In this document: positions 10,536-13,980 of the stretch, in pieces
How positions within the stretch are numbered: the first letter of the stretch is position 1
Layout: each line of letters starts with the position of its first letter
Source of the DNA: an uncultured Clostridia bacterium
GTDB lineage: Bacteria; Bacillota; Clostridia; TANB77; CAG-508
Direction: 5' to 3'
DNA length: 64,000 nt
Assembly (NCBI GenBank): GCA_944392485.1
Contig: CALXWO010000002.1
Location: 23,133-87,132, forward strand
Position numbers and translations under genes: made by a program
Notes under the pieces: model-generated
Told to the model about the DNA's origin: nothing
Database searches by the model: none
The model's input: only the letters and a program-made list of their open reading frames with translations

Positions 10536-10766
10536 TTAATTAATATTAGACAATTTATTTGCAAGAATTGTATTTTCTTCTACACAACTTATTAATTTAT
10601 TTATTATTTCTTCTGGAATATCTGCATGGTCCACAAGGATTTTAGTTATTATATCAATTTGTTTTTTATTTTTTTGATATGTTTTAATTTGATTTTCTTT
10701 TTCTTTAAATTTAAATATATTCTTATAAATATCTTTTTTATCTTTAGGGAATTTATAAATAGACAT
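10536..10766 (-). CDS. Hypothetical protein
   Basis: 76 aa ORF on the minus strand; Lys-rich. Confidence 0.35.
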   Translation of the reverse strand: MSIYKFPKDKKDIYKNIFKFKEKENQIKTYQKNKKQIDIITKILVDHADIPEEIINKLISCVEENTILANKLSNIN

Positions 10767-10866
10767 GTAAAAAATCTCCTTACAAAAATTGTAATTTTAC
10801 ATACCATATTTTACCAACAAGATTAAAACATGTCAAGCTAAAAATTTATAAAAACAAACTTTTAAT

Positions 10867-11196
10867 TTATTTTAAAAAATTAATAAAATCATTAAGAATT
10901 TGAATTGACTTAAATATTTCTTCTTTACTGTATTTAGGCAATAAATTTTGTAAAAATACTTCCATAGAATTATTTACTCCCAGTAGTAGATAATCTGCAG
11001 ACACATCAGTTTTATTACAAATTTCAATTGCTTTTTCAATTGTTAAACCTTTATTACCATTTTCTACAGTTCCAAGATATTGGCTCTTCATATTAATTAA
11101 TTTTGAAAATTCATTTTTATTCATATGCATTTTATTTTCACGAATTTCTTTTACACGCAAACCAATTTCTTTTTTTAAAGAATCTTTACCTACCAT
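10867..11196 (-). CDS. XRE-family helix-turn-helix transcriptional regulator
   Basis: HTH_XRE-like segment LINMKSQYLGTVENGNKGLTIEKAIEICNKTDVSADYLL. Confidence 0.65.
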   Translation of the reverse strand: MVGKDSLKKEIGLRVKEIRENKMHMNKNEFSKLINMKSQYLGTVENGNKGLTIEKAIEICNKTDVSADYLLLGVNNSMEVFLQNLLPKYSKEEIFKSIQILNDFINFLK

Positions 11197-11330
11197 AACA
11201 CCACCTTAATAATATTTTAATATGTAAAAAAAATACAAAAAGAAATAAAAAGTATGTAAATATATGTAGAATTATACAAAATTATATGCTATAGTAAAAA
11301 AAATAAAATTAAATAATAGGGTGATGTAGT

Positions 11331-12125
11331 ATGAGTAAAAAACCAATGACTTTATTATTAATAGAAGACGATAGTATTGAATGCCAAAACTATATTGATT
11401 ATGTAGAAGAATCAAAAGAAGCAGAAATTGTAAAAATAACAAATTCTAGTAAGCAAGGAATAGAATATTTTAATTTATATATGCCAGAAGCAATAATATT
11501 AGATATAGAACTACATAAAGGAGAAGGTTCAGGTTTAGAATTTTTAGAAGAAATAAAAAAATACACAAAAGAATTTAAACCAATAATTGTAGTAATTACA
11601 AATGCATCTTCTAATATATTATATAATAAATTACACGAAGAAGGAGTAGAATTAGTATTTTATAAAAAGCAAAAAGACTACTCTCCAAAACTAGTTATAT
11701 CTTCGGTATTATCTTTAAGAGAAATACTACACAAATATGGTAATCAAAAATGTAATAATAAAAAAGAAACAAAGGCAGAAAAAGAAGAAAAATTATCAAT
11801 TAAAATAGATACAGAATTAAATATAATTGGCATAAGCCCACATTTAAAAGGTAGAAAATATATACATGATGCAATTATGTATTTACTAAAAGAAAAAGAC
11901 AATGAACAAAAAGAAACAGTCTTTAATTATTTGTCGAGCTCATATAAAAGGTCATCAAGTAGTATTAGTAGAGTAATGCAAACGGCAATAAACTATGCAT
12001 GGAGAACATCATCTCCAGAAGACTTAGAAACATATTATACGGCAAAAATAAATTATCATACAGGTGTTCCAACACCAACAGAATTTATATACTATTATTT
12101 TAAAAAAATAGATAAAAACTTATAA
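11331..12125 (+). CDS. Response regulator with Spo0A-like C-terminal DNA-binding domain (Spo0A paralog)
   Basis: N-terminal receiver domain (LLIEDD...ILDIELH); C-terminal IGISPHLKGRKYIHDAI, RVMQTAINYAWR and VPTPTEFI align with the Spo0A_C signature motifs. Confidence 0.6.
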   Translation: MSKKPMTLLLIEDDSIECQNYIDYVEESKEAEIVKITNSSKQGIEYFNLYMPEAIILDIELHKGEGSGLEFLEEIKKYTKEFKPIIVVITNASSNILYNKLHEEGVELVFYKKQKDYSPKLVISSVLSLREILHKYGNQKCNNKKETKAEKEEKLSIKIDTELNIIGISPHLKGRKYIHDAIMYLLKEKDNEQKETVFNYLSSSYKRSSSSISRVMQTAINYAWRTSSPEDLETYYTAKINYHTGVPTPTEFIYYYFKKIDKNL

Positions 12126-12419
12126 AAAAACATAAAGTTACATTACATATCATAAAACTTCAAACCAATAACACTTAAGTAGCAAATAACTTAAGTGTTA
12201 TTTTTTATCTATAAATGTAGATAAAAGGTGGTGATATGTATGTGGTGGGAATGGCTAATGAAATACTTTAATTTTTGGGGATAATAAATTATTAAGTAGC
12301 TATATGCATGAAAAGTATAAAGAATTAATATCCTTTAAAGTAACCATTAAAAAGATAACTGTAAAAAGGCAGCTAACAATTTAAGTTTGACTGCCTTTTT
12401 TCTATATTATATAATTTAA

Positions 12420-13928
12420 ATGGTGAATTTAATGATTGACATTGTTTTAATTAGCAATTTTTTTAAAATATTTTTCATAAGTGTATTATCTTATTATACA
12501 AACTTAAAAATAATTGATTATAAAGAATGCAATACATGTGTAAAAATTTTAATTGTTTTAATAGCATTTATAATAGCAATGCTTTATATATTTTTGGAAA
12601 AATTTTTATTATCAGTTGGTGCATTTATATTTTCATTCTTAATATATATAATTATAATAAATGAAATATTAAAGAATAATAATAAAAACATTTGTAATGA
12701 ATCTATTATTTTATCAGTAATAGTATCGATAATTATCTCGTATATATTTTATTTAATTGCAACTTTAATATCTGGAATAATATTGTTAATAACAGTTACT
12801 ACTAATTTGGATTATAAAAGTCCAATAAGTTTAGTAATTATTCCAATAATTGAATTAATTTTGTTATACGGATTATTTAAAATTAAAAGATTTAAACATG
12901 GATTTAATTTTATCAAGAATAAAAATTATAGTAAAAATTTATTAATATTTTTCGGGCTATTTAGTGTAATGATAATATTTATATTTACTTTTTTGCAAAG
13001 GGACAATAATTTAATTTTCAATACATATTTAGCCATTTTAACTATAATATCTTTCGCAATAATATTAAAATTTCTATTATACCAAATTACAAAACAATAC
13101 AAACGCAACATGAGAGATAGAACAATAGAAATACAGACAAAAGAGATAGTAGAACAAAGTAAAATTATAAAAGAAATTAAAGAAGAAAATCTAAAACTAG
13201 CAGAAACCATACATAAGTATAATAATAGGTTATCTGCATTGGAATTAGGAATAGCAAACGCATTAAAAAATAATAATAAAACAGAATTTGCAAATGAATT
13301 AGGCTTAATGCTAGAAGAGACAAAAGAACTTTCAAAAAAATTTGCAGAAGAAACAACTATAAATAAAACAAACCTACCTAAAACAAATATAATAGGTTTA
13401 GACAACATGTTTAAATATTTTCAAAATGAGGCAAATAAAAACAATATAGATTTTAATGTAATAATTAACGAAAATATAGAAGACTTACTAAAAATAATAG
13501 ATAAACCAAAATTAGAAACATTAATAGGTGACCACTTAAAAGATGCAATAATTGCAGTAAACAAAAGTAAAAATCCATATAAAAGCATATTAGTAATTTT
13601 AGGAATATCAAATAAATGTTACGAAATTTCTATATGTGATAGTGGAATAGAATTTGAAATAGATACATTATTAAAATTAGGAAAAGAAAGGGTAACAACA
13701 CATAAAGAAGAAGGAGGAAGCGGAATAGGATTTATTACAACATTTAAAACATTAAAAGAAACAAAAGCAAGTTTAGAGATAGAAGAATATAATCCAAAAA
13801 CAACAAATTACACAAAATCAATAGTCATAAGATTTGATGGTAAGAATGAATATAGAATATACTCTTACAGAGCAGAAGAAATAAAAAAGAAAAACAACGA
13901 AAAAAGAATAATAATAGAAGAACTTTAA
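12420..13928 (+). CDS. Membrane sensor histidine kinase (GHKL ATPase domain, AgrC/HPK10-like)
   Basis: About 6 N-terminal TM helices; C-terminal ISICDSGIEFE and GGSGIGF ATP-binding motifs; candidate H-box IHKYNNRLSAL. Confidence 0.55.
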   Translation: MVNLMIDIVLISNFFKIFFISVLSYYTNLKIIDYKECNTCVKILIVLIAFIIAMLYIFLEKFLLSVGAFIFSFLIYIIIINEILKNNNKNICNESIILSVIVSIIISYIFYLIATLISGIILLITVTTNLDYKSPISLVIIPIIELILLYGLFKIKRFKHGFNFIKNKNYSKNLLIFFGLFSVMIIFIFTFLQRDNNLIFNTYLAILTIISFAIILKFLLYQITKQYKRNMRDRTIEIQTKEIVEQSKIIKEIKEENLKLAETIHKYNNRLSALELGIANALKNNNKTEFANELGLMLEETKELSKKFAEETTINKTNLPKTNIIGLDNMFKYFQNEANKNNIDFNVIINENIEDLLKIIDKPKLETLIGDHLKDAIIAVNKSKNPYKSILVILGISNKCYEISICDSGIEFEIDTLLKLGKERVTTHKEEGGSGIGFITTFKTLKETKASLEIEEYNPKTTNYTKSIVIRFDGKNEYRIYSYRAEEIKKKNNEKRIIIEEL

Positions 13929-13980
13929 TTATTTGGGACGGAGCAAAATGTTAATTTTTATCATTTTGCTCCGTCCCAAA
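13926..13980 (+). terminator. Rho-independent terminator
   Basis: TGGGACGGAGCAAAATG...CATTTTGCTCCGTCCCA hairpin. Confidence 0.65.

Follow-up and report, generated by a model that had tools for sequence, protein, structure and literature searches.

Peptide quorum sensing in Firmicutes is known from a handful of architectures, namely agr, the double-glycine ComC type, ComX and RRNPP. In the agr specificity groups, as in the comCD and comQXP pherotypes, a bounded polymorphism comprises the peptide together with its sensor. Here we describe a locus that matches none of these four architectures, the island at positions 10,536–13,980 of a 64,000-nucleotide stretch of DNA from an uncultured Clostridia bacterium (contig CALXWO010000002.1), the whole of which is called the window in the following. 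An earlier note, made from the letters of this stretch alone, had described four open reading frames (ORFs) in the island, a small hypothetical gene and an XRE regulator on the minus strand as well as a Spo0A-like response regulator (RR) and a membrane histidine kinase (HK) on the plus strand, and had taken the latter two for a poorly characterised pair of a Spo0A paralog and its kinase. All four ORFs were recovered at the positions given there. Taken together, a peptide gene that had been overlooked, a hypervariable block spanning peptide and sensor, and repeats resembling the 0A box turn this view into that of a probable pheromone system. The cassette most likely represents a form of quorum sensing by peptides, in which an unannotated kinase family is combined with a Spo0A-type output domain and an apparently leaderless peptide.

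The gap of 295 bp between the RR and the HK gene contains a Shine-Dalgarno site (AAAGGTGGTGA), which is followed after five nucleotides by an ATG and an ORF of 14 codons (12,240–12,284, plus strand; 12,224–12,284 including the Shine-Dalgarno site). The product, MWWEWLMKYFNFWG, is a putative signalling peptide. Its gene lies below the size that gene finders call and was also missed in the ORF reading of the earlier note. An ORF of 13–17 codons with an equally strong Shine-Dalgarno site occupies the corresponding slot of 25 distinct related loci, the RRs of which are 39–77% identical to that of the window; examples of the encoded peptides are MSWWEWFIHYFNFWS, MWSWLSKFLSYWCY, MWEWLMELLSYWGGV, MWEWIMKALGYWGGWK and MGSWLDRFLDFFYYWLG. 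A pattern search on both strands of all loci returned one such ORF per locus, exclusively in this slot. Over all 26 loci the peptides contain 21% Trp, the Trp/Tyr-Trp positions are conserved and synonymous codon changes are present, while the two alternative frames of the ORF are interrupted by stops in 15–20 of the 26 loci. Most of the peptides are free of Cys, and with 13–17 amino acids making up the whole ORF none exhibits a Gly-Gly-leader architecture. The helical hydrophobic moment is above that of shuffled versions (mean z 2.0), characterising the peptides as amphipathic. In more distant cassettes (RR 35–40% identical) the same gap carries ORFs for hydrophobic peptides of 13–14 amino acids, again with Shine-Dalgarno sites, on the opposite strand (MLDFLRKILYWGMV, MKGFWEKLFEWLSI, MLDYLWSILINNF, MKAFLDYIIGLFV).

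The abundance of Trp codons and the terminator-like hairpins bracketing the ORF could also be explained without a signalling peptide. The Spo0A paralog and its dedicated kinase would then respond to a non-peptide cue, and the tiny ORF would be untranslated or would act in cis as a Trp-codon leader that attenuates downstream transcription. Attenuation by a Trp leader was rejected: a near-consensus promoter downstream of the second hairpin serves the kinase gene separately, and with the ORF on the opposite strand, as in the distant cassettes, the HK gene could not be attenuated. Stop codon and second hairpin are moreover anywhere between about 20 and 80 nt apart, the non-Trp positions and the amphipathicity are conserved, and the peptide co-varies with the sensor. 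We regard this explanation as very unlikely.

The co-variation became apparent in the comparison of strains. Contigs of the same species are about 100% identical to the window across positions 9,000–16,400, apart from one block with a nucleotide identity of 39–62%. Three independent allele comparisons of the window, with L002, L036 and L038, located the dense mismatches exclusively at 12,242–13,080, with isolated single-nucleotide polymorphisms elsewhere. This hypervariable block begins at the second codon of the peptide ORF, spans the intergenic region, extends to about residue 221 of the HK and comprises the whole transmembrane (TM) sensor up to the end of TM7. At least four alleles occur in the species of the window, encoding the peptides MWWEWLMKYFNFWG, MWEWLMKFLGYWA, MWEWLMEFLNYWA and MWEWLMKYLNFWA; between these alleles the sensors are 30–40% and the kinase cores 98–99% identical. 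The sensor closest to that of the window (50%) belongs to another species (L039), and the respective peptides are 93% identical, differing by one Trp. The same block pattern was found in a second species from the human gut, the RR of which is present in 544 index blocks, with the four alleles MLSWLEELLRYWGRWN, MWEWIMEFFKYWGGV, MWD/EYILKILQYWGGF and MWQKIMEFFLYWGGV. The joint variation of peptide and kinase sensor between strains suggests an undescribed cell-to-cell signalling system. Among the kinase homologs, P0125 and P0130 share identical sensor domains on different kinase cores, which suggests an exchange of peptide–sensor modules by recombination at the junction of TM7 and the cytoplasmic part, corresponding to about position 13,080 of the window.

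An obligate partner of the kinase would co-vary with the sensor too. The peptide might hence never be secreted and might serve as a membrane-associated subunit or modulator of the kinase, as MgrB and SafA do for PhoQ or Sda for KinA, tuning a sensor of another signal. Neither an exporter nor a leader is present, the extracellular loops in the sensor model are very short, and the peptide is amphipathic and membrane-seeking, all of which would suit such a role. Known modulators are, however, longer TM proteins, and several deeply diverged alleles with sensors of 30–40% identity on an otherwise identical background, found in two species, bear the mark of social or pherotype diversification. Such allele diversity would not be expected for a purely intracellular partnership, and we consider a modulator function rather unlikely.

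The composition of the peptide also brings a mainly antimicrobial or cytolytic product to mind, leaderless in the manner of phenol-soluble modulins or leaderless bacteriocins. As with nisin or plantaricin A, the two-component system would govern its production and might sense the product as well. A Trp-rich amphipathic helix without leader would be in accordance with this, and the cassette of locus L040 abuts a nonribosomal peptide synthetase (NRPS) cluster, hinting at control of a secondary metabolite. With 13–17 amino acids, however, the peptides are below the size of known leaderless bacteriocins and phenol-soluble modulins, genes for immunity or ABC transporters are absent from the cassette, and a co-variation that is specific to the kinase sensor favours a receptor–ligand relation. 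A mainly antimicrobial role is clearly improbable; it overlaps with pheromone signalling instead of excluding it.

The RR (11,331–12,125, plus strand, 264 amino acids) combines a receiver (REC) with a Spo0A_C domain, and D58 is its predicted phospho-acceptor. The motifs IGISPHLKG, AINYAWR and PTPTEF, on which the assignment of the output domain had originally been based, are all present, and both domains pass the Pfam gathering thresholds with 68.2 bits for Spo0A_C (threshold 25) and 33.6 bits for Response_reg (threshold 30.2). The receiver had been called divergent, which is correct in so far as its sequence is concerned, but it is not degenerate, the catalytic residues E12, D13, D58, T90 and K112 being invariant in 21 homologs. 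An AlphaFold model with a predicted local distance difference test (pLDDT) score of 86 shows a REC fold that is matched in the PDB. The C-terminal domain aligns with the Spo0A effector structures 1FC3 (E 5e-6) and 1LQ1 (E 3e-5) with coinciding numbering. In the recognition helix the canonical ASRVERAIRHAIEVAW, seen in the structures from B. subtilis and G. stearothermophilus, is replaced by SSISRVMQTAINYAW, which is invariant throughout the family; S210 and R214 are retained, whereas R211S, E213S, R217Q, H218T and E221N are changed. Against the NCBIfam model TIGR02875, the Spo0A equivalog, the RR scores 82.3 bits and fails the cutoff of 200 bits by far, and it is assigned on this ground as a Spo0A-like paralog and not as canonical Spo0A, as the earlier note had suspected. 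Neither ten sampled representatives of the family (52–113 bits) nor ten RRs of distant cassettes (47–114 bits) are canonical. The family is large, with 728 clusters at 90% identity in a word-indexed search and 267 clusters at 50% identity (E ≤ 1e-30) when 1.84 billion representatives were scanned with a profile.

The REC and Spo0A_C architecture alone would also be that of the only, canonical Spo0A of the organism, evolving fast in a genome of low G+C content. IMG lists homologs under the name ‘stage 0 sporulation protein A’, and neither the 64-kb window nor the flanks of 50 fetched loci contain a second Spo0A_C gene. The dpaB gene beside the island is decayed, so sporulation may be degenerating. 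Set against this are the score of 82 bits versus a cutoff of 200 bits, shared in kind by the 20 other members, and the altered recognition helix. The cassette further lies beside spoIVB in none of the loci examined, nearly always includes a cognate kinase and sits at chromosomal sites that differ by species, and its carriers encode SpoIID, SpoIIE and SpoIVA. Paralogs next to spo0A are documented in 11 Clostridiales genomes: Galperin and colleagues reported two spo0A paralogs in 10 of them and three in Anaerostipes hadrus, with no function assigned; Davidson et al. took Spo0A_C as the unique mark of Spo0A. That the RR is the canonical Spo0A appears extremely unlikely.

The HK gene (12,420–13,928, plus strand) is an ORF of 502 codons; the true start is probably the ATG at 12,432, as called in assemblies, leading to 498 amino acids. 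The protein belongs to a family without Pfam or NCBIfam model. We found 1059 homologs, and none of the 120 listed carries a precomputed Pfam domain. HATPase_c remains below the Pfam threshold for the HK (E = 0.028) as well as for 29 of 30 homologs, and neither HATPase_c_5 nor a HisKA family is matched. Sequence and profile searches against the PDB gave no significant match, and the kinase was identified by fold search alone: Foldseek returned 118 PDB hits with E ≤ 1e-3, and the best 50 of the 118 all contain a histidine-kinase core (ZraS, HK853, CpxA, KinB, CheA and others). In the AlphaFold model (pLDDT 68; TM region 72–90) seven TM helices are followed by a long DHp hairpin and an alpha/beta catalytic domain. 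The kinase proposed before with about six TM helices and a GHKL domain thus stands as a kinase; the helices number seven in the model, and the GHKL domain, below the Pfam threshold, is backed by the fold. In an alignment of 30 homologs H265 is invariant within AIHKYNxRLSALE (IHKYNNRLSALE in the window), the N-box position GDHLKDAIIAV (window GDHLKDAII) carries Asp375 in place of Asn, and DTGIEF (G1; DSGIEF in the window) and GGSGIGF (G2) are invariant. NCBI lists one homolog as a ‘DUF2614 family zinc ribbon-containing protein’, and the clusters P0178, P0250 and P0264 form a misleadingly annotated set. Judged by catalytic residues and fold, HK and RR are a two-component system. Phosphotransfer from the kinase to the regulator is predicted from their conserved adjacency in about 25 loci; this recurrence of the pair in approximately 25 of 29 GTDB loci, in differing chromosomal contexts, bears out the suggestion that the Spo0A-like regulator has a membrane kinase of its own.

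The DNA around the RR gene contains candidate binding sites. In the RR promoter region (11,254–11,295, plus strand) the tandem 0A-box-like repeats TATGTAAA, TATGTAGA and TATACAAA follow each other with a period of 10 bp and precede an extended −10 element (TGcTATAGT). An alignment of 25 loci revealed two to four direct repeats with 10–11-bp spacing, followed by an extended −10 element, in most RR promoters (L045: AATGCAAAAAATGTGGAAATTTGTCGAAAAATGTGGTATATT; window: GTATGTAAATATATGTAGAATTATACAAAATTATATGCTATAGT), with some boxes being identical to the canonical 0A box TGTCGAA. Directly after the RR stop codon the window shows degenerate repeats, again with a period of 10 bp (12,128–12,160; ACATAAAG, TTACATTAC, ATATCATAAAA), and at this place other loci contain clear inverted 0A-like boxes (CGACATAAAT CGACATAAAA; CGACATAAATCGACATAAAA; TTTGCATATATTTGCATAT) or, in L024, the direct repeat TTTGTCGAATTTTGTCGAAT. 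The 64-kb window holds two tandem box pairs compared to 0.65 expected. The other pair (31,246–31,266, TATTGTAAATAATTGTAAAAA) is intergenic, upstream of the glycyl-tRNA synthetase ORFs, and may be due to chance. A scan of the window for the two-box pattern TGTNGAA-N4-TGTNGAA was uninformative; the boxes in this species are degenerate.

Further elements lie between the RR stop codon and the kinase gene. A terminator scan detected a conserved terminator-like hairpin with T-run (12,167–12,208, plus strand; hairpin 12,167–12,202) on the 5′ side of the peptide ORF. Its 12 pairs are realised in 94.8% of the cells of a 16-locus alignment with compensatory changes at 8 of the 12, a level that none of 500 shuffles reached. 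In one clade a separate terminator serves the RR itself, and the conserved hairpin is accordingly taken as a probable element of the leader or insulator of the peptide gene. Between the hairpin and the Shine-Dalgarno site a palindrome (ATCTATAAATGTAGAT, 12,207–12,222) is a candidate operator and may be the site of the XRE protein; the equivalents in L008, L033 and L040 are comparable (ATCTATACATATAGAT; TTGTATT...AATACAA). A clade comprising L014–L020, L033 and L045 exhibits the element ATTACCAAA about 20–40 nt upstream of the Shine-Dalgarno sites of both the RR gene and the peptide ORF. After the peptide ORF a second hairpin with T-run (12,365–12,415, plus strand) overlaps the kinase promoter TTGACT-17-TATAAT (12,387–12,415), which lies upstream of the HK start, reaches a scan score of 11 out of 12 and recurs in its layout in related loci. 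A long hairpin behind the kinase gene (13,927–13,985, plus strand) is probably its terminator. An Rfam scan of the island (E ≤ 1) gave spurious matches to miRNA precursors and hairpins only, all below the gathering score.

From these elements we infer the following mode of action. The 7-TM kinase would be expressed constitutively from its near-consensus sigma-A promoter, and the tiny gene between RR and HK would be translated into a Trp-rich amphipathic peptide of 14 amino acids. The peptide would leave the cell or enter the outer leaflet of the membrane, where the membrane-embedded sensor of the cognate kinase allele could bind it. Autophosphorylation at H265 and transfer of the phosphate to D58 of the Spo0A-like RR would follow, and the phosphorylated regulator would act on tandem repeats of the TGT(A/C/G)GAA type, both at the promoter of its own gene and ahead of the peptide gene, resulting in autoinduction and control of a regulon. 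The XRE protein would be a divergent repressor, probably setting the threshold. Translation and export of the peptide, its binding by the sensor, phosphotransfer, DNA binding and the regulon are all predictions.

Several observations weigh against this reading. No exporter, protease or modifying enzyme is encoded within the cassette, and the peptide is without a recognisable leader. The correlation between peptide identity and sensor identity, controlled for the kinase core, is modest (partial rho 0.23 over 253 locus pairs, which are non-independent). Tandem boxes are about 150-fold enriched in the RR-flanking zones (17 in 9.8 kb versus 4 in 343 kb elsewhere), a value to be read with caution as the motif was derived post hoc from the regions in which it was then counted, and the boxes could be sites for canonical Spo0A instead of the RR. 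The terminator-like hairpin stands between the candidate boxes with their −10 element and the peptide ORF and may complicate transcription of the latter. Finally, all sequences behind these results come from metagenome assemblies. Taking both sides together, we put the probability of a self-contained peptide-pheromone two-component cassette with autoinduction at roughly 60%. More tentatively, and with slightly less than even confidence, it could represent a widespread new class of Gram-positive quorum sensing, characterised by leaderless, unprocessed Trp-rich peptides of 13–17 amino acids, intramembrane sensing by a new family of 7-TM kinases, Spo0A-like RRs acting on 0A-box-like sites and several pherotypes per species of gut Clostridia. 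Given the Spo0A-like output domain, such a system may feed strain-specific information on cell density into the Spo0A or sporulation regulon.

A GTDB scan yielded 29 loci, all in metagenome-assembled genomes of uncultured Clostridia (‘Clostridium sp.’ UMGS bins, Lachnospiraceae, Oscillospiraceae and Defluviitaleaceae), and exact matches to the sequence are likewise confined to metagenome assemblies from an uncultured organism. A kinase homolog follows the RR in nearly all of the loci, and the divergent XRE gene precedes it in most. The flanking genes of the window are conserved in none of the related loci; neighbours of the cassette in other species are SpoIVA and FtsZ, SpoIIE, or a sortase–pilin cluster together with an NRPS cluster. 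In locus L040 of a related species, on a contig of 492 kb, an NRPS-like cluster with AMP-binding and Condensation domains and a terminal reductase (10,609–16,602 of that locus) follows directly downstream of the cassette in the same direction and is possibly its regulated output. Searches of plasmid collections and IMG/VR returned no relatives, and three fecal phage contigs reach only 22–26% identity. The phage association considered in the earlier note could accordingly not be maintained, and there is no evidence for phage- or plasmid-borne mobility of the cassette.

On the minus strand the XRE gene (10,867–11,196, 109 amino acids) is divergent from the RR gene, a position that its homolog keeps in most related loci. 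The regulator called there before was substantiated by a match to Pfam HTH_3 with 32.5 bits (threshold 23); Pfam and NCBIfam scans revealed HTH_3 alone and no TPR or Rgg-type C-terminal domain. Scans for defence and phage families (PADLOC, PHROGs) gave generic helix-turn-helix matches to the XRE protein and nothing else. Downstream of it lies an ORF of 76 amino acids (10,536–10,766, minus strand), which is hypothetical as described and has no Pfam, NCBIfam or PHROG assignment. It is part of the island in some related loci only: homologs adjoin the XRE gene in L007 and L017, and L040 contains at the equivalent position an ORF of 77 amino acids that does not align.

The housekeeping character of the surroundings was confirmed, with a frameshifted dpaB immediately to the left and rny to the right. 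The left flank comprises pta, ackA, a transglycosylase, thiamine pyrophosphokinase and the frameshifted dpaB, the right flank rny, ymdB, spoVS and recA. The G+C content of the island is about 22–24% versus 24–32% elsewhere. The dpaB gene (spoVFB, dipicolinate synthase B; 9,929–10,509) is split over three frames (9,929–10,324, 10,197–10,370 and 10,321–10,509), with dpaA on neither side. Six independent assemblies agree to 100% in the two called pieces, and it is therefore considered a real pseudogene. SpoIID, SpoVS and YtfJ, which are encoded at other places of the window, appear intact. Two further genes, both essential, appear split: glycyl-tRNA synthetase (31,614–33,033) is represented by two overlapping ORFs of 182 and 284 amino acids, and phosphoglycerate mutase (iPGM, about 43,623–45,156) by ORFs of 62 and 460 amino acids; a frameshift or a programmed feature may lie behind either case. 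For the recX-like gene that follows recA (20,245–20,694), the window and L002 agree on a product of 149 amino acids; 82 amino acids are called in a different assembly of this species (L001, 18,915–19,163).

The proposed signalling system would be common in uncultured gut Clostridia. If the proposal holds true, many of these organisms, including one species seen in hundreds of human-gut assemblies, would be divided into strain-specific communication groups, and the Clostridiales Spo0A paralogs so far noted without explanation would receive a function. The alleles would then also provide a concrete, synthesisable set of candidate ligands with their cognate receptors. Automatic annotation of the RR as Spo0A could inflate spo0A counts and estimates of sporulation capacity in metagenomes. 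Searches of the literature by concept and by peptide strings and of a human-microbiome small-protein survey found no description of the cassette, within an incomplete coverage that makes an earlier description possible.

In comparison with known systems, canonical Spo0A, which is served by orphan kinases in Clostridia and by a phosphorelay in Bacilli, shares with the RR the REC and Spo0A_C domains, S210 and R214, and candidate target repeats that resemble or, in some loci, equal TGTCGAA. The RR differs in failing the equivalog model, in its diverged recognition helix, in the adjacent cognate kinase and in its variable location, with the expected neighbours spoIVB and recN replaced by dpaB and rny in the window.

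The agr system (AgrBDCA) of staphylococci and clostridia resembles the cassette in the small peptide gene adjoining a polytopic sensor kinase (6–7 TM) and a regulator, in the autoinduction-type layout and in the sharply bounded hypervariable block of peptide and sensor, defining specificity groups, next to a conserved kinase core and regulator. In contrast, the cassette is devoid of AgrB and of a Cys-thiolactone motif, its peptide of 13–17 amino acids has no propeptide, the kinase matches neither HATPase_c_5 (HPK10/AgrC type) nor HisKA, and the output domain of the RR is Spo0A_C and not LytTR. Similarities to ComQXPA of Bacillus subtilis are the short Trp-containing peptide, the multi-TM kinase and the marked polymorphism of signal and sensor within a species. 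However, a ComQ prenyltransferase gene is found neither in the island nor in the related loci, the peptide is the entire ORF instead of the C-terminus of a precursor of about 55 amino acids, and the RR is not of the NarL/LuxR type.

With ComCDE, Blp, Pln and Fsr the cassette would share an unmodified amphipathic peptide pheromone and a polytopic kinase as its sensor; allelic pairs of peptide and receptor are known from ComCDE as well (CSP1/ComD1, CSP2/ComD2). Unlike these systems, it has no double-glycine leader, no ABC exporter with C39 peptidase in or beside the cassette of the window and no LytTR regulator. Tiny hydrophobic peptides rich in aromatic residues or Trp, encoded by unannotated ORFs beside the gene of a helix-turn-helix regulator and without a dedicated exporter in the locus, are also typical of Rgg/SHP and ComRS (XIP). 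Their peptides, however, are re-imported and bound by cytoplasmic Rgg or ComR through a TPR-like domain, whereas in the cassette described here the XRE protein consists of 109 amino acids with HTH_3 alone and the partner that co-varies with the peptide is the membrane kinase.

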